Of a stretch of 64,000 nucleotides of DNA, positions 7,739 through 51,697 are shown in pieces. The DNA comes from Candidatus Bathyarchaeota archaeon (GTDB taxonomy: Archaea > Thermoproteota > Bathyarchaeia > Bathyarchaeales > Bathycorpusculaceae). How positions within the stretch are numbered: the stretch's first letter is position 1; each line of letters begins with the position of its first letter. The stretch lies in NCBI GenBank assembly GCA_963827165.1, contig CAWGZR010000010.1, positions 160,001-224,000 of the forward strand. Reading direction: 5' to 3'. The notes beneath the pieces were generated by a model. It was not told where the DNA came from. It did not search any database and saw only the letters and a program-made list of their open reading frames with translations. Made by a program: the position numbers and the translations under genes.

Positions 7739-7854
7739 TCAAACATGCATTAGGGTATTACGATTATTAACCTAGCGTATAGGGCCCGGAAAAAAAGATT
7801 ACGACAAACTTAATACTTTGCCGTTGCTGCTTGATTCATAGAGGAGGATTTTTT

Positions 7855-8826
7855 TTGAAGGCTGTTGTTTATCGTGGACCCCACGAGATCAAGGTTGAAC
7901 AGGTTCCTGAGCCGCAGTTGAAAGGCAACAGGGTTCTTGTTCATTTCAAAGCTGGAAGCATCTGCGGTACCGACATGCACCTGTATAGGGGTGAATGGAA
8001 ATGGATGAGGAAAGGCATGATTCTGGGACATGACGCATGGGGAGTCCGCGAAGACACTGGCGAACGCGTCGTCATGGTTCCCATAGTCAACTGCGGGCAC
8101 TGTTATTTTTGCTTGCGGGGGTTACCTACTTATTGCACAAAAGGAAAATTCTACGGGTTGACACGCGACGGCTTCTTCGCTGAGTCTAAAGCAATGTTGC
8201 CCCGAAGCTTAATTCCAATTCCCGCAAGTGTCTCTGATGAGGAAGCGGCGATAGTGGAGCCTGTTGCCCTAGCGCTTCGCGTACTCGATTACATGAAGCC
8301 TAATCTAGGCGATTGGGTGACGATAATTGGGCAAGGACCCATTGGCTTGCTTATGACGCGGGTGGCTCAGTTGAAAGGATGCCGCGTTATCGCAGTTGAT
8401 CTTGAGGATTACAGACTTGAATTCAGCCTAAAGTATGGAGCAAATGCAGTTATCAACGCGAAGAAAGAAGACGTAATCAAAACTGTACGGAAACTGACGA
8501 AGCATGGGTCAGACTTGGTCATTGAAGCAGCTGGAACAAGTAAAACGGTTGAACAAACGCCTTTTCTGGTTAGGAAGGCGGGCAAAGTTGCTTTGGTCGG
8601 CGAGTCAAAAGGTTACTTGAACTTAGAAGATGCGGATGAAGCGTTGTTTTTCACAATTTACATTTCGCCTGTCGAATACCCGTCGGCCGTAGAGTTAATC
8701 GCTAGAAAACTGGTTGACGTGAAAGGCCTGATAACGCACAGGTTTAAGTTTGATGAATTCGAGAAAGCGCTGCAAACCGTTGACAATCCGGCAGAGAAAC
8801 CTTTGAAAGTCATAATCACAGCGTAG
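7855..8826 (+). CDS. Zinc-dependent medium-chain alcohol/polyol dehydrogenase
   Basis: ICGTD, GH, CGHCYFC...C structural Zn, GQGPIG; probable TTG start at 7855 after GAGGAGG. Confidence 0.9.
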   Translation: MKAVVYRGPHEIKVEQVPEPQLKGNRVLVHFKAGSICGTDMHLYRGEWKWMRKGMILGHDAWGVREDTGERVVMVPIVNCGHCYFCLRGLPTYCTKGKFYGLTRDGFFAESKAMLPRSLIPIPASVSDEEAAIVEPVALALRVLDYMKPNLGDWVTIIGQGPIGLLMTRVAQLKGCRVIAVDLEDYRLEFSLKYGANAVINAKKEDVIKTVRKLTKHGSDLVIEAAGTSKTVEQTPFLVRKAGKVALVGESKGYLNLEDADEALFFTIYISPVEYPSAVELIARKLVDVKGLITHRFKFDEFEKALQTVDNPAEKPLKVIITA

Positions 8827-8973
8827 GCCTCTTCGACCAAAGTTTTTTTCTTTAAAAGAACAACAACAACCTTGGAATTGCAATTGTTGTTTTCTTGGTG
8901 TTCTAAACGGTCTTTGCCGGAAAATCAAGGTTTTATAATAGAATCAGGTAAATTATGAGGAGAAGGGTCGCTT

Positions 8974-9771
8974 GTGTGGGAAGCGTTCTTGCCCATTATA
9001 GGATTTCTAATCGGGCTGGTTTCGGTGATGGTTGGCCTTGGAGGCGGATTTCTAGTCGTGCCTCTCTTGACTTTGGTCTACGCCTTTTCCCCAGCGAATG
9101 CCGTTGGAACCAGCTTAGCAACAATTCTAATGACGACAGCTGTTGCCTCTGCATACTATTCAAAACAAAAGCAAACCTACTATAAAATGGGCTTAATTTT
9201 ATCTGCAGCCTCAGTGCCCGGCGCAATATTCGGAAGCTACTTAACAACAGAAATACCTGGAAAGGCAATAGGATTGCTTATCGGTATTTTCTTAGTTTTT
9301 GTAGCTTGGCAAATAGTCTATAAAAAAGGCACCCAAAATAACTGTGAAAATTCAGAAGAGGATTCAGGGTTTTCTGAAAAAGAATTGCTGTCTCAACAGA
9401 GAACCGTTTTGCTGGGGGTCGTTCTCTGTTTTTTTGCTGGTTTAATTGGGGGTTTGCTTAGCATTCCAGGGGTGCTGTTGGTGCCGATTATGGCTTTGGT
9501 TTTACACATGCCTTTTAAAACCGTCGCAGCAACTTCGGTTTTCACAATGGTTTTCATTTCTTTGGCATGTACGGTTCAACACATCAGTTTCGGCAACATA
9601 AATGTTAACTATGCATTGCTGATAGGATCTGGCTCTGTGTTTGGAGGATTGCTTGGTGCTTATCTTTGCTCTATCACCAAAAACCAAACGTTGCGTTGGG
9701 TTTTGTTCGGATTACTTCTCTTTATTAGTTTACAGATGTTTTTAAAGTTCGGTTTGGGTGTTAATTATTAG
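8974..9771 (+). CDS. TauE/SafE sulfite exporter family membrane protein
   Basis: GLGGGFLVVP and AVGTSL motifs, duplicated multi-TM halves. Confidence 0.85.
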   Translation: MWEAFLPIIGFLIGLVSVMVGLGGGFLVVPLLTLVYAFSPANAVGTSLATILMTTAVASAYYSKQKQTYYKMGLILSAASVPGAIFGSYLTTEIPGKAIGLLIGIFLVFVAWQIVYKKGTQNNCENSEEDSGFSEKELLSQQRTVLLGVVLCFFAGLIGGLLSIPGVLLVPIMALVLHMPFKTVAATSVFTMVFISLACTVQHISFGNINVNYALLIGSGSVFGGLLGAYLCSITKNQTLRWVLFGLLLFISLQMFLKFGLGVNY

Positions 9772-9898
9772 CAGACAAATCAATTAGAAAATCTCCAGAG
9801 CAAACTACCATCTTCAAGATTTTTTCAGTTAATTCAGAAACGCTTTTTAGTTAAGAAAAGACAGGATATACAAATTCGACCCAATCAGGGGATTATAA

Positions 9899-12706
9899 AT
9901 GGAATCTTATATTGATGCTTCTCTTCGAAAATTCGGCATTGACCTTGTTGGTTCGGTTCCATGGGGAACGCATCTTTGCCAATTTTATGAGTCAAAACAA
10001 GATTTAATCGAAATTCTGGTGCCTTACTTCAAGGAAGGCTTACACAATAATGAGTTTTGCATGTGGGTTACATCCCCGCCTCTGGAAGTTGCAGAGGCTA
10101 AAGAGGCATTAAGAAAAGCAGTTCCCGACTTACAGAGGTACTTGCAGAATGGTCAAATTGAGATAGTTTCTTACACTGACTGGTACCTATTAGGAGGCAA
10201 GTTTGATTCAGATCGGGTGCTTCAAAGCTGGGTGAAAAAAGAGACCCAAGCCTTAAGTCATGGTTTTGATGGGCTTCGGCTGACTGGAAACACTTTTTGG
10301 GTTGAACGCAGCCTTTGGAAAAGCTTTGTGGATTACGAAGAAGCAGTTAATGCAGTTATAGGTCAACATAGGATGCTGGCGTTATGCACTTATTGCCTCA
10401 AAAACGCAAGTGGAACAGACGTTGTTGACGTTGTCAGAAATCATGTTGGTACCTTGCTTAAGCAAGGCAAAGAATGGGTTTTGGTTGAGAATGCAGTAGA
10501 ACGCAAGAAAGAGCAAGATGCCTTAAAAGAACGAGAACAAAGCTGGCAAACCACTTTAGGCAGCATCGGCGACGCCGTTATAGCGACTGACACGGCTGGC
10601 AAAATAACCTTCATGAACAATGTAGCGGAAACGTTAACAGGATGGGCTCTGAATGAGGCATCAAGGAAACCTTTGGAAAAAGTCTTCCATATAGTTAACG
10701 AACAAACTCGTAAAGAAGTTGTGAACCCAGTCACGCGCGTGCTCAAAGAAGGCGCGACGGTGGGGTTAGCCAACCATACAATACTGATAACAAAAGACGG
10801 AAACGAGATTCCTATTGACGACAGCGGAGCACCCATAAAACATAAAGATGGAAAAACTTCAGGCGTAGTGCTAGTATTCCGTGACATAACAGAACGCAAA
10901 AAGGCAGAAAAGGATCTGTTTAATCTCGCAAAGTTTCCATCAGAGAATCCTTTTGCCGTGCTTCGAATCGACAAGGACGGAACCGTTATGTATGCTAATG
11001 CAGAAAGTCAGCGACTGCCGAAATCAATTAGCGCAGAAATCGGTCACGTCGTCAGTCCGCATTGGCTTAAGCATGTATCAGAATCCTTTACGTCTAACCG
11101 CAGGTTGGATTTTGAGGAAAACGATGAAGGACGCTGGTTTGAGTTTAAATTAGCACCAGTTCTTTCAGAAGGGTATGTCAATATTTATGGGTCGGAAATC
11201 ACTGAACGTAAGAAAGCTGAAGAGGCACTTAGAGAAAGTGAAATCAAGTTTAGAACGGTAGCCAATTTCCTTTATGATTGGGAGTATTGGTTGGCTCCAG
11301 ATGGGAGCTTAGTTTATGTTTCACGGTCTTGCGAAAGAATAACAGGCTACAAGGCTGAGAAATTTATCGAAAACCCAACGCTGGTCACCAGCATCATCCA
11401 CCCAGAAGATAAACACCTTTTTGATTCTCATTTCAAGCTTACGAGTATCGATAAGACACACGAAATTGACTTTCGCATAATTACACGGAAAGGAGAAACA
11501 AAATGGCTAGCGCACACCTGTCAACCTGCTTTTGATGATCAAGGAAAGTGGCTGGGTCGTCGTGTCAGCAACCGAGACATCACAGACCGCAAAAAAGCTG
11601 AAGAAAAAGCCAGAAAAAGCGAGGCTGAAAATATCGCTTCAAAATATGCCAGAAGTCTTCTTGAAGCCAGCTTAGACCCACTGGTAACCATTGATGATGA
11701 AGGAAAAATCACAGATGTAAACCAAGCTACTGAAATAGTGACTGGTATTTCCAGGGAGCAACTCATCGGGACTGAATTCTCAGATTACTTCACCGAACCA
11801 GAAAGAGCCAAAGCAGGATACGAAAAAGTGTTCAAAGACGGCTTCGTGAAAGATTACCCGTTAGCGATAACGAACAAATCTGGAAAAATAACCGACGTCA
11901 TATACAACGCATCAATATTTAGAAATACCCAAGGACAAATCCAAGGCGTCTTCGCGGCAGCAAGAGACATCACACAGCGAAAAGCTATGGAGAACGAGCT
12001 TAGGGAAACACTGGAGAAACTAAGGCAATCTAACGCTGAGTTGGAGCAATTTGCCTATGTTGCGTCCCATGACCTGCAGGAACCGTTGCGAATGGTTGCA
12101 AGCTATGTACAGTTACTTCAACGCAGATATCAAGGAAAACTTGACCAAGAAGCTGATGAATTCATCGGCTTCGCGGTGGACGGCGCCAATCGAATGCGGG
12201 GATTAATTGACGATCTTCTAACCTATTCACGGGTTGGAAGGCTTGGCAAACCGTTTGAGCGGACAAACTTGGAATCAACGTTGGACATTGTACTTAAAAA
12301 TTTGCAGGCATCAATCACGGAAAACAACGCGACCGTAACCCACGACAAACTCCCAGTTATCAGTGCTGACGGAGGGCAGCTTGTACAGTTATTCCAGAAT
12401 TTAATCGCTAACGCCATCAAATTCCACGGCAAAGATCCGCCCAGCGTGCATGTGTCAGCTAAAGATAATGGGGCGGAGATCCAGTTTGCTATATGCGACA
12501 ATGGCATCGGCATAGATCCACAGTACTTCGACCGCCTCTTTAAGATTTTCCAGCGCTTGCACACGAGAGAAGAATATTCAGGGTCGGGAATCGGCTTGGC
12601 AGTGTGCAAAAAAATCGTGGAGCGGCATGGGGGACGCATTTGGATTGAGTCTGAGCTGGGGAAAGGTTCAACTATTTATTTCACACTCAGTAAAAGGAAG
12701 CAGTGA
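9899..12706 (+). CDS. MEDS-PAS(x4)-HisKA-HATPase sensor histidine kinase
   Basis: VPWGTHLCQFY (MEDS), repeated DITERKKAE PAC ends, FAYVASHDLQEPLR H-box, NAIKF, DNGIGI, GIGLAVC. Confidence 0.93.
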   Translation: MESYIDASLRKFGIDLVGSVPWGTHLCQFYESKQDLIEILVPYFKEGLHNNEFCMWVTSPPLEVAEAKEALRKAVPDLQRYLQNGQIEIVSYTDWYLLGGKFDSDRVLQSWVKKETQALSHGFDGLRLTGNTFWVERSLWKSFVDYEEAVNAVIGQHRMLALCTYCLKNASGTDVVDVVRNHVGTLLKQGKEWVLVENAVERKKEQDALKEREQSWQTTLGSIGDAVIATDTAGKITFMNNVAETLTGWALNEASRKPLEKVFHIVNEQTRKEVVNPVTRVLKEGATVGLANHTILITKDGNEIPIDDSGAPIKHKDGKTSGVVLVFRDITERKKAEKDLFNLAKFPSENPFAVLRIDKDGTVMYANAESQRLPKSISAEIGHVVSPHWLKHVSESFTSNRRLDFEENDEGRWFEFKLAPVLSEGYVNIYGSEITERKKAEEALRESEIKFRTVANFLYDWEYWLAPDGSLVYVSRSCERITGYKAEKFIENPTLVTSIIHPEDKHLFDSHFKLTSIDKTHEIDFRIITRKGETKWLAHTCQPAFDDQGKWLGRRVSNRDITDRKKAEEKARKSEAENIASKYARSLLEASLDPLVTIDDEGKITDVNQATEIVTGISREQLIGTEFSDYFTEPERAKAGYEKVFKDGFVKDYPLAITNKSGKITDVIYNASIFRNTQGQIQGVFAAARDITQRKAMENELRETLEKLRQSNAELEQFAYVASHDLQEPLRMVASYVQLLQRRYQGKLDQEADEFIGFAVDGANRMRGLIDDLLTYSRVGRLGKPFERTNLESTLDIVLKNLQASITENNATVTHDKLPVISADGGQLVQLFQNLIANAIKFHGKDPPSVHVSAKDNGAEIQFAICDNGIGIDPQYFDRLFKIFQRLHTREEYSGSGIGLAVCKKIVERHGGRIWIESELGKGSTIYFTLSKRKQ

Positions 12707-12710
12707 TATT

Positions 12711-13151
12711 ATGAATGAAGTTAGACCTGTGGACATATTGCTTGTTGAAGATAATCCTGGAGACGTGCGCCTAACAAAAGAGGCTCTAAAAGACGCAAAA
12801 GTGCTGAATGAAATCTTCATTGCGAGAGACGGGGTTGAAGCAATGGAGTTCCTGCATAGAAAAGGCCAGTTTTCAAATGTACCTCTGCCAGACTTAATAC
12901 TGCTTGACCTGAACTTGCCAAGAAAAGATGGCCGTCAAGTGCTAGCTGAAATCAAAGAAGACCCAATTCTGAAGCATATACCAGTTGTTGTTTTGACGAC
13001 CTCCAAAGCTGACGAAGACATAATTAAAACATATAACCTGCATGCCAATGCTTACATCACGAAGCCGGTTGACCTGAACCGATTCGCAGAAATCATACAT
13101 ATTTTAAACGAATTTTGGTTCACAATAGTTAAACTTCCGCCAAAGGAGTAA
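12711..13151 (+). CDS. Single-domain response regulator (Rcp1-like)
   Basis: ILLVEDNPGD, LLDLNLP, TTS, ANAYITKP; ATG at 12711. Confidence 0.93.
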   Translation: MNEVRPVDILLVEDNPGDVRLTKEALKDAKVLNEIFIARDGVEAMEFLHRKGQFSNVPLPDLILLDLNLPRKDGRQVLAEIKEDPILKHIPVVVLTTSKADEDIIKTYNLHANAYITKPVDLNRFAEIIHILNEFWFTIVKLPPKE

Positions 13152-13153
13152 GA

Positions 13154-14569
13154 ATCATCAAAATTCTCTTAATTGAAGATAATCCTGGCGATGCTCGCCT
13201 AATTTTGGAAATGCTTAAAGAAGAAAAATTCTCAGTGGAAAACGTAGAGCACGTCGACAGGCTTACAAAGGGACGAAACCGCTTATCCGAAGGCGCCGTT
13301 GATGCCATATTGCTCGATCTTGGTTTACCTGACAGCCAAGGACTCGAAACTTTTGAAAAAATACATGCTGCAGCCCCGCAAGTACCCATCGTTATTTTGA
13401 CTGGGTTCAAAGATGACGCGCAAGGTGTCGAAGCCGTCCGCAGAGGGGCACAGGATTACTTAAACAAAGGAAAAATAGAAGGACCTCTCTTAGCCCGCGC
13501 CGTAACCTACGCGGTTGAACGAAAAAAACTAGATGAAGCGGTCCAGAGGCAAGCTGCGCTCATCGACCTCAGCCCAGACGCAATTATAACAAAAAAACTT
13601 GATGACACCATAACCTTCTGGAGTTTAGGCGCAGAAAAAGTGTACGGTTACACAAAAGAAGAAGCCATTGGGAAAAAATCTCGGACGCTTTTTAAAACAA
13701 AATTTGCTTCTCCATTTGAAAACATAGAAGAACAGCTCAAAAAAGAGGGGAAATGGTCCGGTGAGCTCTACCATGAAACCAAATCTGGGCGTGAACTGTC
13801 AATTCAAAGTTATTGGCTTGCCAAGTTTGACGAGAACTGTAGAATGGTTGAAATTTTCGAGTCCGACGTGGACATAACTGAACGCAAAAATGCTGAGCGT
13901 CTAGCTGCAATTGGAGCTACCGCAGGCATGGTTGGACATGACATTCGTAATCCGCTGCAAACAATTGCGGGCGAAGTTTATTTGGCAAAGGGCGTATTGG
14001 ATGATTTACCGGATGGGGAACCTCGTAGAAGTTTGAGTGAGAGTCTTGATACTATCGAGCGTCAAATAGATTATGTTAACAAAATAGTCCAAGACCTTCA
14101 GGATTTTGCAAAGCCAATCAAGCCGTTACTAAAAGAAATCGACTTAGACAATGTATGCAGGGAGTTGTTATCGAAAACTCATGTCCCAGAAAATATTGTT
14201 GTCTCCTGCAAAATACAACCTGACGTCAAAGCGCTGTTTTCTGATCCTGATATTTTAAAGAGGGTAATGATTAATTTAGTAACTAATGCGGTTCAGGCTA
14301 TGCCTAAAGGCGGAAAGCTTTGCATAAGTGCGTTCCCTGACGCAGGGGACACAGTGCTGACCGTTGATGATACAGGATGCGGGATTCCGAAGGATGCATC
14401 CACTAAACTTTTCACGCCTTTGTTTACTACTAAATCTAAAGGCCAAGGTTTTGGGTTAGCCGTGGTCAAACGCATGACCGACGCGTTAGGCGGCACCGTT
14501 ACATTTGAAAGCGAAGTGGGGAAAGGCACAAAATTCTTCATACGCATCCCCAAGACAAAAAATAATTGA
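13154..14569 (+). CDS. Hybrid REC-PAS-histidine kinase
   Basis: In-frame IIKILLIEDNPGDARLI upstream of the track start; LLDLGLPDS; PAS; GHDIRNPL; NAVQAM; GFGLAV. Start codon uncertain. Confidence 0.9.
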   Translation: MIKILLIEDNPGDARLILEMLKEEKFSVENVEHVDRLTKGRNRLSEGAVDAILLDLGLPDSQGLETFEKIHAAAPQVPIVILTGFKDDAQGVEAVRRGAQDYLNKGKIEGPLLARAVTYAVERKKLDEAVQRQAALIDLSPDAIITKKLDDTITFWSLGAEKVYGYTKEEAIGKKSRTLFKTKFASPFENIEEQLKKEGKWSGELYHETKSGRELSIQSYWLAKFDENCRMVEIFESDVDITERKNAERLAAIGATAGMVGHDIRNPLQTIAGEVYLAKGVLDDLPDGEPRRSLSESLDTIERQIDYVNKIVQDLQDFAKPIKPLLKEIDLDNVCRELLSKTHVPENIVVSCKIQPDVKALFSDPDILKRVMINLVTNAVQAMPKGGKLCISAFPDAGDTVLTVDDTGCGIPKDASTKLFTPLFTTKSKGQGFGLAVVKRMTDALGGTVTFESEVGKGTKFFIRIPKTKNN

Positions 14570-14866
14570 AAACTTATTTTTTTCAATTCAAATTATGGAA
14601 CCTTAACGAAACTATGCGAGATTGCGCAGCCAAAATTTTACCGCAAAGTATCCCGTGTGACGTGGGTATAACATTGTACTTTCTTTTCTTAACTACTTGC
14701 ATAGTTGTCACACTCTTCACTCATTCTATGGCGACTACTAAATAACTTTTGGGTAGGATAGCGTCTGTGGAAGACCTTTAGCGAGTTTTAAGTCCTATTG
14801 CGGTGTTTCAGAATTTGTATGTCACTTTAATGCGTCTATTATAGACTATGTTTTTGAGGTTAATTT

Positions 14867-15052
14867 ATGGAAAATGAAGAACCTGAAACTAAAGAAGAGT
14901 GCATGAAAGCATTTTACCGTATACTGCCAAAAGAAATGGTGGAGTATTGTAAAAAGGACTTGTATGTTTCAGACGGTGAAGAATGGGGTTACCAAGTGGG
15001 TTTCGTAGTTGGCGTTAAATATGTCATAGAAAAATTCCTAAACCCTACTTAG
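14867..15052 (+). CDS. Hypothetical protein (61 aa)
   Basis: GAGGT RBS plus ATG; no recognisable motif. Confidence 0.55.
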   Translation: MENEEPETKEECMKAFYRILPKEMVEYCKKDLYVSDGEEWGYQVGFVVGVKYVIEKFLNPT

Positions 15053-15237
15053 AAAGGGTGGATGACCATCTGAACGGTAAAGATTCAGTTCACTAAAATG
15101 AACAGCGACCGACTGAAGAATCTCCCTTCTTTTCACTTTTATCAACGTCTTCCCTGTTGTGAGTGAATTTTCTATCATAATTGAAACAGTGCAATCATTT
15201 TAAGCAAAAACAACAAATAGTCTCCGTAGGTGTGAAT

Positions 15238-15462
15238 ATGGGGAGCACGCACACAGACAAGAAGGGTTACAAAAGATACGGTGATAGTGGGTTGTTGGAG
15301 CATAGGGTTATAGCATCGAAAAAGATTGGTGGTCCAATAGGAAGAGGCAGAGTTGTTCACCACGTTAATGGAGACAGGAGCGACAACAGAGGGAGCAATT
15401 TGCGTGTTATGAGTGGAAGTAACCATTCTTCGCTTGAGGCTAAGAAGCGCAGAAGGTACTGA
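15238..15462 (+). CDS. Small HNH endonuclease (HNH_3-like)
   Basis: EHRVIA...VVHHVNGDRSDNRGSNLRVMS..NH. Confidence 0.8.
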   Translation: MGSTHTDKKGYKRYGDSGLLEHRVIASKKIGGPIGRGRVVHHVNGDRSDNRGSNLRVMSGSNHSSLEAKKRRRY

Positions 15463-15844
15463 AAGTAATCATTTCAATACCCTTTTGCAAAAGAAGCTTG
15501 TGAATTGCACATGTTCATTACAGTTCTATGGAAGTTGATTTATCTCAACTTTGAGATGCTTATGGTCGCACTCCTGTCGGTGTTGGAGCATGCTGCCTAA
15601 AATGCAACATCTACTTTGCTTCAGAAATATAGTTGAACAATCTATTGCAAAAGAAACTACCTTTGAAGTGTCCTATGTGCAATGTAAGTTTCCGTCAGAA
15701 CTACTCTTTTATTTTCAACCATCATGTTGTAGAAAAAGCGCCTATGTGATTAGTTGAAGCACTTTTCTCTACTAAACGCATTGTTTGTTCAGGCATAAGT
15801 CAAGAAAAGCATAGAGTAAGCGAACTGCTAATTCACCTTCTTGA

Positions 15845-16153
15845 TTAGAACTTGCAGAAAAGCTCCCACAGCAAATCAACAAGGAAGCATTTATCTTCTC
15901 CACATCTGCAAATACTGAAAACGCACCCAAATTCCACTCGCTTCTTAGGGAAAAACTCCAATCAAGAGGATATACGATTGTTGACGAATTTAATTGTGCT
16001 GGATTCAACTGGTGGGGTCCATTAAAACTGGTGGGTGGCACTAAGAAAGATAGACCAAACATTGAAGATCTCAAACATGCTGAAGAGTTCGCTTTGAAAA
16101 TAAAAGATAAACCACAAAAGACTAATGAAATGACTATTACTGTCCACAGTTAA
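15845..16153 (+). pseudogene. 5'-truncated flavodoxin-family gene (C-terminal half); not in the ORF track
   Basis: Start-less frame LELAEKLPQQINKEAFIFSTSA...FHSLLREKLQSRGYTIVDEFNCAGF..GPLKLVGG.KKDRPNIEDLKHAEEFA, preceded by in-frame TGA. Confidence 0.75.
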
Positions 16154-16325
16154 ATTTTGTTCCAAACCACTTGGTAAACCATTTAAAACTTCCACATTCA
16201 TCTCTCGAAGCGCATGTTAAGCAAGGAAATTCCTTACCAGCAACGTCTATTACACTTGATATTCTTTCGACAGTGGCTTTTTCATTTACGATTTCTTCGA
16301 CTTGTTTTTCTATTTCACCTGACAT
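16137..16325 (-). CDS. Small Cys-rich hypothetical protein
   Basis: CLTC..RDEC motif; GGTG RBS. Confidence 0.55.
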   Translation of the reverse strand: MSGEIEKQVEEIVNEKATVERISSVIDVAGKEFPCLTCASRDECGSFKWFTKWFGTKFNCGQ

Positions 16326-16404
16326 CTCAAATCACCTAAATATTGAACCTAAAATAGACAACAAAAAGAAAAAAGTGTTTGAGAGTTTTGTAAAACGTTT
16401 GCAT

Positions 16405-16806
16405 CTATGCTAGTTTTTTGCTACCTTGTCCGGGCGAAGCGGAGAAGACTTCAGTGACTTTTATTATTCCAACACTTTTTATTTTCATTTTCGAGGTTTC
16501 CATACTCTTCTTTGCGAAGTTATCGAAAATTGGTCCGTTTGTTTGGAAACCACTGAATGTTCCCTTTAGTTGGTAGCCTGTCATTGGTCCTTTGAACACT
16601 GCAATAGCAACTTGCTTGTTTTTTTCAAGGTTTTCTTTTGTTTTTATGATGAAAACTTCTGCGAACGCAATAGTTTCGGGGTCTACTGCTACAAAGCTCC
16701 ATAATGGAACTACGTTTGGAATGCCTTTAGCGTCTACTGTTGCAATCATTTTCGCTGAATCACTTGCACTTAAAACATCCATTACTTCTTTAGGTATACT
16801 TACCAA
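16405..16806 (-). CDS. Pyridoxamine 5'-phosphate oxidase-related FMN-binding protein
   Basis: IATVDAKGIPNV, KTKENLEKNKQVAI, GYQLKG, SASPG. Confidence 0.85.
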   Translation of the reverse strand: MVSIPKEVMDVLSASDSAKMIATVDAKGIPNVVPLWSFVAVDPETIAFAEVFIIKTKENLEKNKQVAIAVFKGPMTGYQLKGTFSGFQTNGPIFDNFAKKSMETSKMKIKSVGIIKVTEVFSASPGQGSKKLA

Positions 16807-16841
16807 AATTCACACTTCCTACTAATGGAAACATAACTGCA

Positions 16842-16874
16842 ATACTCTAATATACTTTTAGGGAATTAGAATAT
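16842..16874. promoter_or_regulatory. Inverted repeat in the divergent promoter, possible ArsR operator
   Basis: ATACTCTAAT-N13-ATTAGAATAT (9/10 complementary). Confidence 0.4.
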
Positions 16875-16903
16875 ACTCAGCAAATGCAAGGGAAGTACAG
16901 TAT

Positions 16904-17668
16904 TTGGCTAACACAGGCAAGGATTCATCATCCGATTACCTAATTGGTGCAATCGCTGAGTTGAAGATGGAGATTAAAGGCTTAAGAGCAGACATGAACA
17001 GGGTAGAAGAAACCGTTTTGAAGGAACGTCTTCGTGCAATTGAAGATACTCTTATACAAAATCACCTATTGGTCTATGCTGGTCAGAGGTCGCAATCTCT
17101 AAATCAAGACATTGCAACGTTGCTCAAAGAAGATTGCCAAAACAGAGACAAATGTCTTGAGCATTACAAAAACACAATAGAAGAAAACACGCAAGTTATC
17201 AAACAGTCTGGAACAAAAGAAGCTCTTGCAGACTTTGATGATAAAATAGCTGAAACCGAGTTAATGGTTGAAAAGACCAAAGGTCAGCAATGCGGAAACT
17301 GTTTCTCCAACTTTGATAAGAAGCTAAAGCGTGAAAAAAGAGCGTTCCAAGAAATACTCTTGGTCAAAGACGTTAACAACGATAAAATAGTTAACAATCG
17401 GTCTTTGGATATTCCATTTCTTTTGCAAAACTTGTTTGAACCTTTAGGAAATGATTCACGGCTCAAAATCTTAGCTATTGTATATGAGGGAAAAAAGAGT
17501 TTCTCAGAGTTGTCAAAAATAGTAGACCTCAAAGCTGGTCATCTCACATTTCACTTAAAAAAACTGGTTAATGCGAAGTTGATTGCTCAAGAAGCATCGA
17601 AAGGAGATTACATCATAACTCAAAAAGGCTTGGCTCTTGTTAAGGAGATGCTTAACCTTCAAAAATAA
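16904..17668 (+). CDS. ArsR-family wHTH regulator with Cys-containing N-terminal extension
   Basis: EPLGNDSRLKIL...SFSELSKIVDLKAGHLTFHLKKL...YIITQKG; CGNC. Confidence 0.8.
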   Translation: MANTGKDSSSDYLIGAIAELKMEIKGLRADMNRVEETVLKERLRAIEDTLIQNHLLVYAGQRSQSLNQDIATLLKEDCQNRDKCLEHYKNTIEENTQVIKQSGTKEALADFDDKIAETELMVEKTKGQQCGNCFSNFDKKLKREKRAFQEILLVKDVNNDKIVNNRSLDIPFLLQNLFEPLGNDSRLKILAIVYEGKKSFSELSKIVDLKAGHLTFHLKKLVNAKLIAQEASKGDYIITQKGLALVKEMLNLQK

Positions 17669-17692
17669 AGCTAACAGATTAAAGGTGATTAG

Positions 17693-18295
17693 ATGAAGAT
17701 AAAAATCAGGATGTATTCAGATTATATCTGTCCTTTCTGTTATCTCGGTGAAGCAATAATTGAAAAACTCAAAAACAGATACGCCATTGAAATGGAACAT
17801 ATCGGCATAGAAATCCACCCTGAGACACCAGAAGAAGGAGTAGACCTGAGAGGAAGAATCTACGGAATAGAAGAGATGTATGAGAATTTGAGGTGTAGAG
17901 GAAAAGAGTATGGTCTTAACTTCTGTGATGTTGGACTCCTCTCGAATTCAAGAGGAGCACTCATAGTCGGTGAATATGCTAGAACTGTCGGCAAGAATGC
18001 AGAATTCACCCATGAGGTATTCAAAGCCTACTTTGAAGGTTGCTTAGATATTGGGAAAGAAGCAGTTATTTTGGAAATTGCACAGAAAGTTGGTTTATTT
18101 AAGAAAGAAGTCGAAGACTGCTTGAAAAACCCGTTGTATCAAAATAGTTTTGCGGATAACTGTGCTGAAGCTAGAAAACACGATGTTAGCGGTGTACCAA
18201 CATTCATTGTAAATGGCAAATACAGAATCACGGGAGCACAGTCAGAGGAAACATTTGTGGAGTTCTTTGAAAAGATTAACAAGGAATGCTCCTGA
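17693..18295 (+). CDS. DsbA/FrnE-family thiol-disulfide oxidoreductase
   Basis: YSDYICPFCY and GVPTFIVNG...GAQ. Confidence 0.9.
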   Translation: MKIKIRMYSDYICPFCYLGEAIIEKLKNRYAIEMEHIGIEIHPETPEEGVDLRGRIYGIEEMYENLRCRGKEYGLNFCDVGLLSNSRGALIVGEYARTVGKNAEFTHEVFKAYFEGCLDIGKEAVILEIAQKVGLFKKEVEDCLKNPLYQNSFADNCAEARKHDVSGVPTFIVNGKYRITGAQSEETFVEFFEKINKECS

Positions 18296-18547
18296 AGTTA
18301 CAAAAAGACTTGGAAGAGTTCGCTTCAAAAAACTGAAGAAGTGAAATCAAGAGACATGAATGGAAAACTATTGTCTTCATAGTCTATGTACAGTTGCTTT
18401 ATCTCCACCTTTGACTTTTCTCTGTTTGCCGAGCAAATCCTTTTGGGTCACTAGCAGGTAAGAGCACCAACACTCCAGCAACTCCTATTTTTTCACCTGC
18501 CAGTGACCAATTCGAAACTCTCAAACATCAAATAGTATGTCCGCGTT

Positions 18548-18607
18548 GCCTCTCTTGTATGTGCTTTTAGTGGTCTTTTTGTTGAGCCTATTGAGGAATA
18601 CTTCCAT
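18548..18607 (-). pseudogene. Possible 5' stub of a tyrosine integrase
   Basis: MEVFLNRLNKKTTKSTYKRG resembles integrase N-termini (FL..L...T...Y); starts ~40 nt inside the island right arm and points inward. Confidence 0.4.
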
Positions 18608-18731
18608 GTTGGTAAGTGCTTTTTGTTCTGTACATTTAGGTTTCTAAGATATACCCATGTTGTGCGGAACACCGCAAAGTATATTGCTCATAGAGTTAGT
18701 TCTAACCCAGTTTTAGTTTGACCATGAGCCG

Positions 18732-19424
18732 ATGAGTATGGCTGTAGAAGCGGTAATATTCGATTTAGACGGGACAATTGCGCATTTCAACTTGGACTAC
18801 AAAGCCCTGCGCGCTGAAATCAGAGGCTTCCTTATGAGAGCAGGAGTTCCCGCTTCGGTTTTAAACATTAACGAAAGCATTTTTGAAATGCTGGGAAAAG
18901 CCGAGATTTTCTTCAAGAACGGTGACAAATCAAATTCGGCCAACGTGTTTGGAGCGGTTCGCGCAGAAGCTTTAGCTATCGCTGAAAAATACGAGATGGA
19001 AGCTGCTTCTACAACAAGTTTGCAGACAGGAGCCGTTGAGACGCTGAAAGAGCTCAAAGCGATGAATCTAAAGATGGGTTTATGCACCATTAACAATGAA
19101 AAAGCAGTAAAGTACATTCTTCAACGCTTCAAAATTGAAGAATTCTTCGCCGCAGTTGTTCCACGAGAAAAAGTTAAGTACGTCAAGCCACATACGGAAC
19201 AGTTTGAAATGACGCTTAAAGTGCTGGGAATCCAAGCTCAATCGACCGTCGTCGTCGGAGATAGCGTTGCTGACATGCAAAGCGCCAAAGAACTCAAAGC
19301 AATCGCGGTTGGAATCCCGACTGGAACAGCTACAATGGATCAACTTAAAAAGAATTCAGCGAATTACATCATAACTTCGCTAAGTGACCTACCGCATCTC
19401 ATCAAAGAAATAAATAAGCCTTAA
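18732..19424 (+). CDS. HAD-family hydrolase (phosphoglycolate phosphatase-like)
   Basis: FDLDGT, KP and VGDS..D motifs. Confidence 0.9.
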   Translation: MSMAVEAVIFDLDGTIAHFNLDYKALRAEIRGFLMRAGVPASVLNINESIFEMLGKAEIFFKNGDKSNSANVFGAVRAEALAIAEKYEMEAASTTSLQTGAVETLKELKAMNLKMGLCTINNEKAVKYILQRFKIEEFFAAVVPREKVKYVKPHTEQFEMTLKVLGIQAQSTVVVGDSVADMQSAKELKAIAVGIPTGTATMDQLKKNSANYIITSLSDLPHLIKEINKP

Positions 19425-22400
19425 GCAGCCGTAACTACATCGTCTTTTAAGACAAGTTTTCTATCTCTTACCAGCCGCTTGAGGATTTCCGAAAACACCT
19501 CTTCCGTGCCTTCCGCCGAATGGTTAAGCCCAAAAACCTTAGCCGTTTCCCAAATCAACGATTCCCGACTGATGCCCAGCGCATACCGCGTGACAAGCAA
19601 CATAGCCGCTTCCACTTCCTCAGGGGCGATGTATTCGGGTTTGCGTTTAGTTTCGGGGATGCCTTGCACGGGAACCCTTATCGGAGTTTCCTTAAGAGTG
19701 GGAGACCAAAGGAAGCTTCCTTTAAGAACGACTTTCTGTTCCTTTAACAAATTGTTTAGGGCTCCTTTCACTGCATGTCTTATCTGCGGGGTCACCTGTT
19801 TGGTTCCCCACGCGGCTGCCAAACGTTCCGTTGCGTATTCAAAGTGAATTGGCCCTTCATTTTGCACAAGCTCAGATAGGAGTTTGGTTTGGTTTTCCCT
19901 ATTTTCAGGAAAGTGGAACTCGTTTTTTTGTTTAGAATCAACTGAGCCACGAGCCCCTGCGACCATTATGTACGGGTTGAACATTGCCTTGAGCGCGTAG
20001 GTTTTGTAGGGAACTCCGATTTTTTCGACTCCTGCAAACTCGTTTCTCTGCACATCAGTTTTCGGAGCCATCCCTTCCTTGACCTCAATCACCGGTTTCT
20101 GTGAATCCTTGTCCAACTGCTGTTTACTTGCTTGTTCCAAGTCTTCCTTCAGGCGCCGAATTTCAGAGTCGCGTCTTGCAACCCAAGCAGGAGACCAAAC
20201 GCGGTGAATCCGCCAACCAAGTTGCCGCAATACCTGTTCACGGAGGCGGTCTCTGTCCCGCGCGCTGCTGCTTGACCTATATGAGGCTCCATCGCATTCC
20301 ACGCCGAGCAAGAAATTGCCCGGGTTCACTGGGTCTAAAACGCCGATGTCAATCCTGTAGCCGCTGCACCCCACCTGCGGAACAACCTCGTAACCCATCT
20401 TCTTAATTTCCTCCGCCACATCCTCATCCAAAGCCGATTCAAACTCGCCTTCCCGCGACTTCACCGACCCCAAAGTTTCAGTCCCATGCTCAGCGTAATC
20501 TATGTAGTAACGTAGCGTTTGCACTCCAAGCGCCTTTGTTTCAGCGTCGATATCAGTTGCCTTAATCGATGTTACAAGAACCACTTTTTCCCGGGCTCTG
20601 GTAACTGCAACGTTTAGACGCCGCTCACCGCCAGGCTTGTTAAGTGGACCAAAATTCATAGCCATCTGCTTGCCCTCGTCGAAGCCGTAGCCGACGCTAA
20701 AGAAGATGACGTCCCGTTCGTCACCTTGAACGTTCTCTAAGTTCTTCACGAAGAAGCCTTCCAAACGATCCTCTTTAAAGAATGGTTCGAAGTCAGGCTG
20801 CATTTTTAGTCGGTTATCTATGGCTTCTTCAACAGCTTCCATCTGGGCTATGCTGAACGTTACTACGCCGAGGGTTTTCTTCGGGTAGAGACGGAAATGT
20901 TCGAAGACAAGATCAGCCACTTTTTCTGCTTCCTTGATGTTGTTTCTTTTTCCGCCTCGGACGTAGACGCCGTCTGGGACGTAAACCAATTTTACGCCTA
21001 AAGCGTCGTCTTGGGCTCTTGCAGCGGGAAAAGTGACGAGTTCATCTTCGTAGAAGCGGTGGTTCGAGAAAGCAATTAACCCTTCATGCTTGCTGCGGTA
21101 GTGCCAACGCAGCGTTTTGACTGGTAACCCGATGCCGAGGCACTCGTCAAGGATGCTGTCGAAAACTTCAACGTCTTCGTCGTTGAGTTCATCCCAATCT
21201 ACATCGTCGAAGAGGCTTTTCTGGAAAAACGACGTGGGTGGCAACTGCTTGTTATCGCCTGCAACGACTAGTGTTTTTCCGCGGTAAATCGAGCCAATGG
21301 CGTCTTCAGGAACAATTTGTGAAGCCTCATCAAACAAAACCAAGTCAAACTTCATGTCAGGAGGCAGGAACTGGCTTACGCTTATGGGGCTCATCAATAG
21401 GCAAGGCTTGAGTTTACCAAGTAAGTTAGGGATTTTTTGGAAAAGCACCCTGATCGGCATCAGCTGCCTCTTTTTTGAGGCTTCTTTTTGTAGAACGGCT
21501 ACTTCAGAGTCGGCTGCTTGAATTAGGATGTCTTGGGGTTTGCGGCTGTTCGCCTGTTCGATAACCATGCTGGAGCTCAGCTTAATGAGGTCCTGATCCA
21601 ATTTTTTGAAGTCTGCGATCAGTTGCTCTTGGTTTTCCCATCTGAACCTGCCCAGCTTGGGGTCTTCATTATACAGGTTATTTATCCATTCTTGATACAC
21701 GCCTCTTCGAAAAACATCCACCAAGTCTGCTGCTGAAAGTTTCTGCTCGGCTAAGTGGTTGAAGAACTGGTCAAAGCCGCGGAGCGCAAAGCGGTTTTTG
21801 ATGTCTTTAAAGTCAACCCAAACCTGAATGTCGTCAACACGGTTTCGTAATGCATGGATTCGTTCACCGATCACACTTATTTCTAAATCTTTCAGGAGAT
21901 TGTTTTTGTATTTCATCGGCGCTTCAAAATGAGCCTCAAAATCGCTAAGAACTTTTAAGGATGCATCGCGTTTTTGTGTTAGCTCCCTGCTTGATGGAGC
22001 CGCAGTTGGTCCTTGAGCCGCGATTTGCGCGAAAGCAAATGGAACAGGAATATCAAGGAATGCTGCCTGAACCTTTTTCACCCATTCAATAACCTCAACG
22101 ATGTCTTGCCAGTTTGTATCAAGCTCGTTGAAGCGTGAGCCAAACTTCTCTTGAAGCTGCGCCTTTTCACCGATGATAGCCGCTTCTTTCTTGCGTATTT
22201 CTTCCGCGTTTTGAAGGTCATCTATAAGCTGCTTGTAGTTTGATGGTTCCTCCTTGCTGACTGCAAGAGTTTCCCTTGTCAATCCTTTAAGCGGGGTCAG
22301 TTGCCTTTCTGTTTCGTTCAGCCATTCCTCAACCATCGGGATCGGTGTCCAAGTAATTGCGGCGCTAGATTTGGTCATGCTTGCCGGGATAAGTGACTCG

Positions 22401-25121
22401 ACGTCTTTGAGCAGCTGCTCCCACTTAACCACCGACTCTTGAAGCTCCATACCCAAATTCTTAATCATTGGCGACGGAGTGGAATTGTTAGTTACGAGTT
22501 TGAGCAGGTTTTCGGGGATGGTTGTTGCCCAAGAAAGCTTGCGGATTTCCGCGGCTATTAACAAGGCCTTTTCAGCGCCGTTGAAGTCTGTTTTGGATTT
22601 GTGATAGTAGTGGCCAAGCAAGGTTCGGACGGTTTCAGTTGATTCATCAATTTCTGTCTCTAACTTCTTGACTTTCCGAGCGCCAACAAGGTCGGTCAAC
22701 ACGGTTTTGGGAACTTTGCCGTCGACGGTGACCGCAGCGATTTGTTTTTGGTCGTTGCGGTAGCTTGAGTTGAAAATCTTAAGCGAGGCTTGACTGTACT
22801 CATTATACCTCGCGATCAAACCGTCGAGGTCCAGCTTGTAGAGCCCCTCATTGTAGGTTCCGTCCAAGCGGCTTTTTAGAAGACTGTGGTCTTGATATAG
22901 CCGTTTGGCTTTCGGCAATATTTCCTCAACTTGCTCGAAGTACTTGCTGTCAAACCACAGCGGTTCAGGCTTGTCTTGGCTGAAGCAAAGCAAAGCGATA
23001 CGGGCTAATTCTTTTACTTGCGTAATCGTCAACCCGTCGCTGTCCAACCCCAAGGTTGGAGCAAGCGCCTGCGAGGTTTCACGCCATTTCCGTGCAGCCA
23101 TCTCGGTGTTCTTTATGAAAGTCAAAAGTTTTTCGCGTTTGGAATAGAATTCGTTCTCTTCCAACCGGACCCCAGGCATCAAATTGTTTAACGCATCGAG
23201 TTGCCGTTTTAATTCTGTTGACGCGTTAAGAGCCAAGTTGAACAGGGAAGGTTGGTAGCGTTCCATGAGGCTTATTCGGGTTTCTTTTATCCATAGAGTT
23301 GTTTCATTGTAGCTTTTGGCTTCATTGTAGAGTTTTCCGGTTTCTGAGTTAGTCATCCAATAAGCTTCAGGCTTGGGGCTTTCAGTTAAGAACTTGCTAA
23401 CTTCTAAAAGCCAATTGATGCGCGAAAATGTTTTAGGCGGAAAAACATCCAGTTTAGCGGAGAAATCTTCCGTTTCAAGCTTCAAATCCCCCAGGGTTTC
23501 GTTGATGTTTTCGAGCGACGTCAGCACTTCTGAGCGGAGCTCCAAATTGTAGAAGTCAGCGCGGTAGCCTAGCCACGGAAAGTCGGGTTCTTCTATCACT
23601 TGCCAGACCTTGCTTAGTTGAGAAACGAGAGCTTCCAACTCATGCATTTTCTGAGGGGTCAGAGTTCCCAAATCAGTTAACCCGACGGGCACGAAGGGAA
23701 CCCGCTCAAGGCTGGAAATCAAACTTAAAACTTCGTAGGCACTCCTCTGCAGGAACGGTCGCGTCTCATGCAAAGCGGCAACATAACCGTTTAGTGTTTC
23801 CCGATATTCAGTCATTCTTTCAAATTCGTGGACGGAGGGCAATTTTCGTGGGATCAGGTTTTCGTCAAGGCTACGTTTCAACTCGGCAACAACTTGTTGT
23901 TTGTTGGCTTTGCTGCTGTGAAGTTCAAGGCAAAAATGAGCCAACCCAACTTCGCTGAGCCGTTTGTAAACGACTTCTAGGGCTGCCATTTTGTCGCTGA
24001 CGAAAAGCACAGATTTCCCATTTGCAATGCATTCTGCTATTATGTTCGCTATTGTTTGGCTTTTTCCAGTGCCAGGCGGACCCTTCATGACGAAGCTTTG
24101 TCCGCGCAATGCGTATTCTATGGAGACTCGTTGGCTGCTGTCGGCATCTAGAACCTGGTGAGTTTTGTCTGGCGGCTCGATTTTGTCAACGTCTTTCTCG
24201 TCGGGCAACCCGTCTAAGAATCAGGTTGTTTTCTTTGATGCCTGCGATTGCCCTTATGATAGGGTGCTGCGTAACTAACGCGGAGTTCGACTCTAAATCT
24301 TTGTAAATAACCAGTTTTTGGAAGGAGAAAAGCCCAAGGTCAGTTGACGACTCAACTTTCCAGCCCAGTTCAGCAACCGCCAGATTGACCTTGTCGAAGT
24401 AATCTTGCAGAGTAAGGTTTTCCCATTCTTCAGGCAAAGATGGCAAATCGATTTTGTAGTCGTTTTTCAGTTTGACCTGCAGGGCTGGGTTCAAAACCTC
24501 TTCGTCCTCAACAGGCGGCAAGCCCACACTGTATGGTTGACGTACAGTGTCTCTCGTAAGTTCTAGGGGCACAAGAATCAAAGGAGACTGAACTTGCTCT
24601 TTTGTCTCCGAATCAACCCAGTTAAGAGTACCAAAAGCCGCATGCAAAATGCGAACACCCCGTTCACGGTAATCCAGAAGCGAACGCCACTGCAGGCCTT
24701 TGAGGTTCCTTTCAAGTTCTGTGCGTGACATTTTTCCGCAAACCAACTGGTTTACCTTAGGACGTTGAGGTGCCTCAGGCACTGCTAGTGCATCTTTGAC
24801 AGAGGCTTTAAAATCGGCTTTCGCGGTTTTGGCGGCTTTGCCCTTAGCTTTTCCTTTCGGCTTTTCGCCTTCTGCCAGTTTTTGCGCTTCCTCAGGTGGT
24901 ATCCAGAATTCCAATTTTTTCTTTTTCAAAACCAACGAGTTAAAAACCATTTGCATGTCAGGTTGGGTAATCGGTAGGCTTCCTCGCTTGTTTTTATGGA
25001 AGTATAGAAGGTTGTTTCTTCTTGAAAGGTCAATTAATCTTGACTTCCAATCTTCCACTCTTTTCATAGGCTGGGAAGCAAAAGTTTGCGTCATAGCCAC
25101 ATCTACACCCACTGGTTCCAT
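19421..25121 (-). CDS. DUF4011 / SF1 (Upf1-DNA2-like) helicase / restriction-endonuclease-fold / DUF3320 protein, Hhe-like; split by a +1 frameshift near 24216
   Basis: WKSRLIDLSRRNNLL (DUF4011), GPPGTGKSQTI, FDEASQ, GDNKQLPP, HYRS, ENVQGDERD, RRLNVAVTRAR, QVG...RIDIGV..ECDG...RDRDRLR; removing one base gives NNLILDGLPDEKD. Confidence 0.88.
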
Positions 25122-28944: not shown

Positions 28945-29199
28945 ATCTATCGCACACTCAACATTTCATTATTCAATAATAAACGTTACTGTGAATTGAA
29001 GTTTAAAAACAAGCTCCTTAAGCCTTTTAAAGTTTCCTTAAAAAAATGACGCGCCTTTTTGGTTGATATCAATTAGCGGCATTTACCGTGGGCTTTTTCA
29101 TTACATTTGCCGCATATGAAAGGTTACATTTTTTGTCGTTTTTAAATGTACCATTAAACATAATACCTCTGCACAAGTCACTGGTTAAGAGGCAAACTC

Positions 29200-31716: not shown

Positions 31717-31801
31717 CCATTTTGGCTTGCCTTCGTAGCTTTCTTGGTGAATGTTTAGTTTAGGGGAAAATTTATTATTAATCCAAAACCCAATACCATT
31801 T

Positions 31802-50484: not shown

Positions 50485-51697
50485 TCAAGTATTTTCTGCT
50501 TTAAGAATTTCTGCTTCTTGCTCATGCTCTTACTTCATGAATCATGTACCAATTCTTCTATACTGTAGTCTTTAGGCAGTAGTTTACGGTTTTTGAGTGA
50601 GTCCATTAAGATGTCAAACGCATAAGAAATATGGCTGATTTTCTTTTGTTGGTCCAGTTTTGTAGCCTTCAAGTTCACTTTTAATTGCTTCTGGTGTTTG
50701 GGGCAACAAGTAAGGCAATGCAATTTCATATTTAATGAAGTAAGTTCTTTAAAGTCATGGCTCGGAATAATGTGCATCTACACCCTTAACTTTGTGTGCC
50801 ATTAATGAGGACTAATTATGTTTGCGTTGAACACCAGCGTTTTCTAAAGCACTTTGGAAGAATTCCCTTAAGTCATGTGGCGAAAATCGTTTAGTTTCCA
50901 AATCTCCCCATGCGGCAAGGCTCAAATCGTCAAAGATTCCATTCATGCCTTTGATGGTTAGCTCTTGAATTTTGCCTTTCTTCCAGTATGCGATGAATAT
51001 CGGAGAATCGGGTTTCAAATCATAACCTTTCTTTTGTGCTTCCTGTTTGTATGTCATTAACTTCTCGTAAGCGAACTTATGCAAAAACGTAATTTGTTTC
51101 AAGCCTTTGTATTTACCGACTCCAGAGCCTTTTAGTCGTGCACTTTCAACTTCAATAACAAAAGGCACGTTTGGGTTTTCTGTAGGTTTCAAATCTTGCC
51201 ATTTCAATAAAACAAGTGTACCGACCCTAACTGATGTTGAGCCAAAGAACCAAATTAATGCTTTATCCCTTGCTGAATGCGAAACGCTTTCTAAAACTGT
51301 TAAATCTTCAGTTGTTGGCTTGCGCTTTTTAGATTCTAGGGGTTTCATTCTTAACGTTGCTTGCTGTTTGTGCTTCTAATGCTCTCCTGTTATGTTTGTA
51401 GAAACTGAAAACAGCGTTTCTAAGCATAAGTCGGGCTGTTGGTTTCATGTGGGTTTCAGCGAAATAATTTTCTAAAAGGTTCTCTGCTTGCCACTCTTTT
51501 TCTGTTCCTACGTTCTGCAAACCCTCAACTTTTAGTGCAATTAATTGGTCTGGGGTTTTCTGTACAGCATCACAATAAACTTTAAAATATTCTGTGAATT
51601 TCTCTTTTGTCAGTTTACAACTTAGTTTATTTTGCCATGTTTTACCGCTTGCGAAGGTATTAATCCAAGCATCTCTATCTTCATTCATCTTACTCAT
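50485..51697 (-). pseudogene. Tyrosine recombinase/integrase with several frameshifts
   Basis: RDKALIWF..STSVRVG (R), FSPHDLR (HxxR), then LMAHKVKGVDAHY (H, catalytic Y) and KYEIALPYL in shifted frames. Confidence 0.88.

Follow-up and report, generated by a model that had tools for sequence, protein, structure and literature searches.

A putative integrase-less integrative cassette at a single promoter-proximal site in an archaeal genus

Features at the locus

The window, i.e., the whole 64-kb stretch of DNA analysed here, corresponds to C10:160001-224000 of the 3.13-Mb genome of a soil archaeon, which is coded G000. A 4-kb island in this window lies between the gene of a hybrid histidine kinase and the promoter-like block of a HAD-family hydrolase gene, and it is probably a non-autonomous, att-flanked site-specific integrative cassette (14652-18682) whose recombinase would be supplied in trans. 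Comparisons were made within a genus set of 120 genomes, with member genomes designated by G-codes and contigs by C. The features that delimit the island are as follows.

13205..14569, plus strand: gene of the left-flank hybrid histidine kinase (454 aa; Pfam HATPase_c, Response_reg, PAS, HisKA), outside the element
14640..14651, plus strand: left 12-base repeat, the putative attL core; its first 9 bases, ACCGCAAAG, are common to all three elements described below
14652..14690, plus strand: arm at the left, or conserved left end, which contains ACGTGGGTATAACAT as its outer box and has homologues at the left end of the G003 and G051 elements
18650..18670, plus strand: right arm TATACCCATGTTGTGCGGAAC, in inverted orientation to the left one and with a homologue in G051
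18671..18682, plus strand: right 12-base repeat, the putative attB core, which starts the HAD promoter-like block and at which the homology of relatives begins
18732..19424, plus strand: gene of the right-flank HAD-family hydrolase (PF13419, PF00702), outside the element

Repeat and inverted arms

The direct 12-mer ACCGCAAAGTAT is present at 14640-14651 and again at 18671-18682, in agreement with the first-pass annotation, which had placed one repeat at both ends of the island, and the identity ends at the repeat edges. The island has a G+C content of 0.380, compared with about 0.44-0.46 in the flanks. Two further copies of the 12-mer were located at C10:138224 and C10:274731, both in unrelated contexts. 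Exact direct repeats of at least 12 bases lying 1-10 kb apart number 65 in the window and 2,996 genome-wide, and the 12-base repeat by itself is at chance level.

For each repeat pair the would-be circle junction was built, and 23-base arms were scored around a spacer within the repeat. The junction of the island, with the spacer CGCAAA, possesses arms complementary at 16 of 23 positions, the seven mismatches being five G-T and two A-C on the top strand; the recomputation reproduced the 23-6-23 architecture with seven transition-type differences that had been described before. Junction palindromes of at least 16/23 occur in 14 of the 2,996 genomic pairs, with about 0.3 expected in a window-sized stretch. 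Complete purine/pyrimidine symmetry (23/23) was obtained for two of the 2,996 pairs, with 21 as the next best value; this statistic was picked post hoc and serves as a pointer only, and to that extent the inverted arms are an outlier among the repeat pairs of the genome. The second 23/23 pair belongs to a genuine insertion sequence (IS) that encodes a 312-aa transposase and has inverted ends as well as a 15-base duplication.

With so many comparable repeats in the window and palindromic pairs in the genome, the island could be suspected to contain nothing mobile, only ordinary variable DNA flanked by a repeat and a palindrome that arose by chance. This explanation is refuted by an empty site located exactly at the repeat and by homologous ends at the same site in two species, both of which are presented below.

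The IS mentioned above is located at G000:C1:39070-40136, where the ends span about 23 bases and the 15-base duplication is that of the target; the product of its transposase open reading frame (ORF) reads as an HTH plus rve-like protein. Two other 14-base repeat pairs with palindromic junctions were noted, namely 46830/49479 (junction palindrome of 16/23), which lies inside the 41-51 kb region, and 59263/67001 (17/23), of which position 67001 is beyond the window.

The empty site and the target

An empty site had been predicted, and it was found with the predicted breakpoints and the flanks joined via one 12-mer in L040, a 3,000-base metagenome contig that was the single return of a scan with 25 bases spanning the right 12-mer copy. 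L040 aligns with window positions 14225-14651 at 94.4% identity and with 18671-21255 at 93.0%. The single 12-mer is common to both alignments, which gives an insert of 4,031 bases with exact bounds. The 3' end of the kinase gene and the 70 bases beyond it are present in this empty-site contig.

The occupied state was followed in read-derived data, namely the Logan contigs of four runs (X1-X4), which drop rare forms. Contigs bridged the left occupied junction in X1 and X2 and the right one in X1, X2, and X3. A joint of both element ends was not present among the four joints listed for the X1-X4 contigs, in which rare forms are not visible; the four connect kinase paralogues or fall at 16962/16681.

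Similarity to relatives starts exactly at 18671, and the block that opens with the 12-mer sits upstream of the HAD hydrolase gene in 16/16 displayed relatives; the first set of relatives comprised 17 at the species level, and the display of the HAD promoter covers 16 of them, without G005. Because the block is kept in relatives and similarity begins at that position, the right 12-mer copy is regarded as native. The block looks like the B recognition element (BRE)/TATA promoter of the HAD gene, with the 12-mer at its upstream edge. In each of the first 17 relatives synteny breaks at the HAD promoter, and these genomes are too diverged for an empty-site comparison of the island.

Homologous ends with unrelated cargo in two other genomes

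A blastn-type search with the left 1.5 kb of the island against the 120 genus genomes brought up two further members of the element family, in which the initial 54-56 bases recur. The left end of the island matches those of G003 and G051 with 82-84% identity across 51-56 bases, and for the right arm plus core the identity to G051 is 91% over 33 bases. The G003 element (C1:1398046-1402117; 4,072 bases) lies between ACCGCAAAGAGT and ACCGCAAAGTAT, and the G051 element (C1:113154-114307; 1,154 bases), in which the right arm is present, lies between ACCGCAAAGAAT and ACCGCAAAGTAT. Both inserts open with ACCGCAAAG followed by the homologous left end and close at the HAD promoter 12-mer. To the left of the G003 element lie 21 bases and, upstream of them, the stop codon of an ADH-like gene. 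In 9 of the 17 relatives the distance from the end of this gene down to the HAD promoter is about 21-35 bases; in G023 the gene ends about 250 bases further upstream.

The interiors of the three elements are unrelated, with blastn finding only the ends in common. The G003 element carries a gene for a solute-binding protein (PF13531) together with genes read as two permeases and an ABC ATPase, and the G051 element carries two orphan ORFs, one of which was found in 1 of the 120 genomes. There is one cassette per site, and no tandem array was seen at the site.

Of the 120 genus genomes, 3 contain the left-end motif and 2 the right arm, always at this one site. In a collection of 185,579 species genomes, the scan of which may leave out records of the window's own genome, the left-end motif matched G003 and G051 only. 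Within G000 itself, the arm box has a single occurrence at up to one mismatch. That the arms occur nowhere else is as predicted by one target site per genome. When the exact left arm was sought with up to three mismatches, it was retrieved from 1 of 101 genomes, the own genome only, the middle of the arm being too diverged. The first-pass annotation had asked for arm copies beside full-length integrases to be sought genome-wide; the arms do recur in relatives at the same site, but none was found beside a full-length integrase.

In the shared register the arms pair at 16/23 positions in G000 and at 14/23 in G051 (18/30), and the spacing of the outer boxes is identical. The left and right repeat copies match at 12/12 positions in G000, 11/12 in G051, and 10/12 in G003. 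The left copies of G003 and G051 differ from the right ones at positions 10-11, with A at position 10 against T in all targets, and these differences reduce the common core to 9 bases and indicate that positions 10-12 of the left copy are element-derived, a pattern that would be predicted for an att core bordered by sequence of the element. In the best register, the axis of the arms is displaced by 1 base from the centre of the 12-mer, so that they extend into the repeat.

Inverted ends with an adjoining direct repeat are the classic anatomy of a non-autonomous cut-and-paste transposon, for which the arms would be terminal inverted repeats, the repeat of 12 (or 9) bases a target duplication produced by staggered cutting, and a DDE transposase would act in trans. 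The perfect repeat of G000 suits this explanation, and the same symmetry statistic flags the real IS of G000 with its 15-base duplication, which indicates that long duplications occur here. However, all three family members occupy one nucleotide position, no further arm copy exists in the 120 genus genomes, and no IS with these ends was found in G000. In addition, the symmetry axis is displaced from the centre of the repeat with the arms running into it, and the empty sites are clean and show no footprint, so a transposon is quite unlikely.

Cargo of the island

The island itself contains the following features.

14867..15052, plus strand: small ORF (61 aa), possibly decaying; no Pfam match above the cut-off
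15181..15462, plus strand: HNH endonuclease-like ORF (93 aa; PF13392, E 5.5e-10)
15532..15680, plus strand: pseudogene of a small zinc-ribbon protein with an in-frame stop, whose intact counterpart in G079, a 66-aa gene, is 83% identical
15845..16153, plus strand: 5'-truncated flavodoxin-domain gene, 89-94% identical to G101, G064, G081, and G130
16405..16806, minus strand: gene of a PNPOx-family flavoprotein (133 aa; PF01243)
16904..17668, plus strand: gene of an ArsR-type winged-helix regulator (254 aa) with a long N-terminal part; PF14947, PF24038, and PF01022 match at residues 176-253
17693..18295, plus strand: gene of a DsbA-like thioredoxin-fold protein (200 aa; PF01323, E 2.5e-32)
18521..18607, minus strand: 28-aa ORF without assignable function, called an integrase stub in the first-pass annotation; 0 Pfam matches at E<=1 and 0 PHROG matches

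The block 16083-18354 displays 81-90% DNA identity to G010, G014, G001, and G023, where it stands in unrelated contexts, and the backbone genes of these four genomes are 66-70% identical to the window. As judged by sequence comparison, the PNPOx/ArsR-type/DsbA-like cluster looks like a recently exchanged redox module, and recent transfer is likewise suggested by cargo that is 90-94% identical to species with a backbone identity of about 70%. The island as a whole appears to be a mosaic of chromosomal DNA captured from the genus. No recombinase was found near the three-gene cluster in G010, G014, G001, and G023 or near the homologue of the HNH ORF in G072.

The HNH ORF matches 17 PHROG families, 15 of which are named HNH endonuclease. 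Contigs of X1 and X3 have two extra bases behind 15301 in this ORF, and a 1-base deletion at 14929 interrupts the 61-aa ORF in contigs of X1 (in part) and X2; the small island ORFs are not kept in frame across populations. The full flavodoxin homologue of G101 (152 aa) matches PF12724, and the island fragment alone has no Pfam match. An Rfam scan of the island returned one sub-threshold microRNA match only.

Weaker paralogues of the PNPOx/ArsR/DsbA cluster were observed on contig C3 of the same genome, at 31029-32104 and 293511-294107.

Recombinase search and proposed mechanism

The island had been described as non-autonomous, and indeed it encodes no recombinase of its own: six-frame scans with PF00589 and PF00239 gave no match in C10:174640-178682 and none in either the G003 or the G051 element. 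The nearest PF00589 match is about 32 kb from the island, in another element. An inward-facing integrase stub had also been proposed beside the right arm. The 28-aa ORF exists, but its integrase origin is supported neither by Pfam and PHROG nor by tblastn, in which the eight tyrosine recombinases of the genome reached a best E of 0.29 against the island, away from the stub. The stub region is unconserved in G051, where right-end homology is limited to the last 33 bases. Nor did the comparison confirm the proposed likeness in layout to the element at 41-51 kb, whose integrase shares nothing detectable with the island.

Taken together, the clean empty site, the one target, the 9-base core, the inverted arms, and the one copy per genome point to conservative site-specific recombination. 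In the proposed mechanism, a circular form of the element and the chromosome would recombine conservatively at the short core ACCGCAAAG, which is 12 bases long in the G000 copy. The chromosomal core would lie where the promoter-like block of the HAD gene starts on its upstream side, and one core would be left at each end. The ends would carry inverted, putatively protein-binding arms, each with one box adjoining the core on the inside and a GGGTATA box on the outside, and in the circle these arms would flank a crossover region of 6-9 bases. The recombinase would come from a helper element or from the host, a tyrosine recombinase being the most likely and a large serine recombinase less likely. 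The cargo would be chromosomal DNA acquired within the genus, consisting of the PNPOx/ArsR-type/DsbA-like cluster and two gene fragments.

A further step is conceivable, although doubtful: the two arms and the 9-base core may suffice for mobility, and the site, at the border of a conserved promoter in a single clade of Bathyarchaeota, would then be a slot for the exchange of single cassettes, served by an outside recombinase from the host or from a helper that is never resident there. Chromosomal pieces from other species of the genus would be loaded into this slot and cleanly removed from it again. As part of the same tentative proposal, such a slot might be an archaeal functional analogue of the cassette traffic of integrons and of integrative mobile elements exploiting Xer (IMEX), without their components.

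Several observations weigh against a site-specific integrative cassette. Arms of 23 bases are long for the core of a tyrosine recombinase, the dyad symmetry of the target site is low (10/23 in L040, 5/23 in G019, and 8/23 in G016), and the right arm of G003 has been lost (4/23). The identity of the arms between G000 and G051 (82% left, 91% right) is close to the flank identity of 81%, so that the ends could be simply inherited. In an all-against-all comparison of the eight G000 recombinases with 11 of the 12 PF00589 matches of G003 and G051, from which a weak match with an internal stop at G003:C1:1589423 was left out, no integrase was shared at high identity by the three genomes. No recombinase tied to the arms was found in these searches, and viral contigs gave 0 matches for either arm pattern. 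Likewise, the 120 genus genomes, the 185,579-species collection, and the viral contigs yielded no autonomous partner with the same att specificity. Serine recombinases are represented by fragments in G000, two in G003, and 0 in G051.

Since none of the three members carries a recombinase, the enzyme might also be the Xer-type housekeeping recombinase of the host, acting as on IMEX at dif and possibly via a folded single strand. The 6-base spacer agrees with archaeal dif as it appears in the accessible part of the source (PMC8371274), and the top strand of the junction folds somewhat better than the bottom strand in both G000 (z of -3.95 and -2.43 versus shuffles) and G051 (-4.46 and -3.17). 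Folding better than shuffles on both strands is nevertheless expected of any imperfect palindrome. The arms of G051 contain three transversion-type mismatches, and positions 10-12 vary without compensation; with non-compensatory changes between G000 and G051, the folded single-strand att suggested earlier receives no specific support. The target, too, is not dif-like, since pairing between the inner 11-base arms amounts to 6/11, 4/11, and 4/11 positions in the empty sites, and it stays in a promoter-like block beside one gene. A host Xer recombinase acting in this manner is very improbable.

Two other integrase loci came into view during this search. In the low-G+C 41-51 kb region of the window, the integrase (50535-51697) consists of two ORFs on the minus strand (51329..51697 and 50812..51348), seems to end early, and has a weak PF00589 match only; at the right border of this element the search detected no direct repeat of more than 11 bases. 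G051 contains an extra insertion at G051:C1:124007-127336 (L061), syntenic to about position 29045 of the window, with an integrase-like ORF beside a tRNA-like sequence, and tblastn found no counterpart of this insertion in G000. This ORF, 11 kb away from the G051 element, was considered as a helper and rejected, because it belongs to that separate insertion.

History of the locus

The genome of the nearest species to G000 is G051, with 81% identity across the HAD/helicase region. A tree built from the neighbouring 3-kb locus only, rooted at the midpoint and without G009 (contig too short), placed all carriers and L040 in one clade with a support of 1.00. In one branch of this clade the occupied G051 stands beside the pair of the occupied G000 and the empty L040; in the other, the empty G013 stands beside a group in which the occupied G003 is sister to the empty G019 and G016. 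The carriers are interleaved with clean empty sites, which implies three or more precise gains or losses, all at one nucleotide position. Two histories fit the tree, either one gain followed by three clean losses or three gains.

The first of these histories resembles an explanation in which the clade's ancestor received a single insertion that is now immobile, its ends being inherited relics, its cargo having been replaced through ordinary recombination, and the empty sites having arisen by spontaneous deletion. The occurrence of all carriers in one clade speaks for such a relic, as do the similar divergence of arms and flanks between G000 and G051, the lost right arm of G003, and the decay of the small ORFs and the two gene fragments. 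On the other hand, three independent precise deletions (L040, G019 together with G016, and G013) across repeats of 9-12 bases would be needed, and the cargo is entirely different among the three elements. Parts of the G000 cargo bear the marks of recent transfer from distant species, as described above, and the original insertion would still require a site-specific mechanism. An immobile relic is unlikely on this evidence.

The locus also carries a second, older rearrangement at the same junction. In G000 a segment of about 5.8 kb (8827-14639) separates the ADH-like gene (7831..8826) from the HAD-promoter site, and it contains a TauE-like gene, the gene of a 935-aa PAS kinase, that of a response regulator, and that of the 454-aa hybrid kinase. 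L040 has this arrangement too, which makes it older than the cassette polymorphism. The histidine-kinase cluster is found elsewhere in G016, G014, G010, and G023, with unrelated DNA downstream.

Some side observations concern the same neighbourhood. Compared with the window, all four runs contain an additional C after position 8891. The helicase/nuclease gene next to the HAD gene (19421-25121) is split into ORFs of 1,595 and 311 aa that overlap at 24186-24208, and G051 has one ORF of 1,897 aa; the split is a frameshift or an assembly error. In the genome, mcrA and amoA had no match, with the amoA control itself matching nowhere.

Comparison with known systems

The cis-mobilizable elements (CIMEs) of bacteria are the closest described kind by analogy. 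In these elements the integration and transfer genes are lost and attL and attR are kept, as stated in the accessible part of the source (PMC5704250). The likeness to the CIMEs of Firmicutes lies in the att-like ends that are kept without a recombinase gene. CIMEs, however, are decayed integrative and conjugative elements (ICEs) or integrative and mobilizable elements (IMEs) from bacteria, usually reside at tRNA genes or the 3' ends of protein genes, and are mobilised by an adjacent related ICE. Here, by contrast, the host is archaeal, the target is intergenic and promoter-proximal, the smallest member is 1.15 kb, and no helper or tandem array was seen at the locus.

Among archaea, the cryptic integrated elements (CIEs) of Thaumarchaeota, along with other integrative elements of archaea, offer a comparison. 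According to the accessible text of the source, the integrase is the defining conserved protein of CIEs, and their sizes span 2.6-98 kb (median 17 kb; PMC6563490). They resemble the present cassettes in being archaeal, in their short direct repeats, in sometimes intergenic targets, and in cargo of unclear function, again as far as that text goes (PMC6563490); unlike them, the cassettes have no integrase and measure 1.15-4.07 kb.

Integron cassettes are likewise small and promoter-adjacent, with swappable cargo, an imperfect palindrome, and a recombinase encoded outside. Next to the present site, however, there is no IntI-type gene, attI, or array, each site holds one cassette, the cargo is multi-gene in mixed orientation, and no sign of a conserved folded strand was detected. 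Elements of the IMEX kind (CTX-type) exploit Xer recombination at dif and have no recombinase of their own. The likeness to them, drawn from general knowledge and from the accessible part of one source, lies in the missing recombinase and the 6-base central region (PMC8371274). In that source, archaeal dif consists of two 11-nt inverted repeats around a 6-nt spacer (PMC8371274), whereas the present target has no dif-like dyad and lies beside a specific gene in the 16 displayed relatives. Non-autonomous transposons, including miniature inverted-repeat transposable elements (MITEs), share the inverted ends, the flanking direct repeat, and the absence of a transposase; they differ from the present elements, which use one fixed target, occur in one copy per genome, and are without an autonomous partner in the 120 genomes.

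In the accessible portions of the literature on integrase-less or trans-mobilised archaeal integrative elements, no such family was found described. These integrase-less cassettes of 1.15 to 4 kb appear, from the comparison of their ends and sites, to represent a real and modestly novel mobile-element family.

Implications

The mobile DNA of Bathyarchaeota and further uncultured soil archaea has mostly been catalogued via integrase or capsid genes, and elements without such genes escape this approach. A family of this kind, if it moves as proposed, would explain the intra-genus movement of chromosomal clusters, such as the thiol/redox-type cluster that is 81-90% identical between genomes whose backbones are about 30% different. 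Moreover, if a recombinase were matched to the arms, about 60 bases of element ends and one enzyme would constitute a compact natural insertion system, which would serve a lineage without genetic tools.

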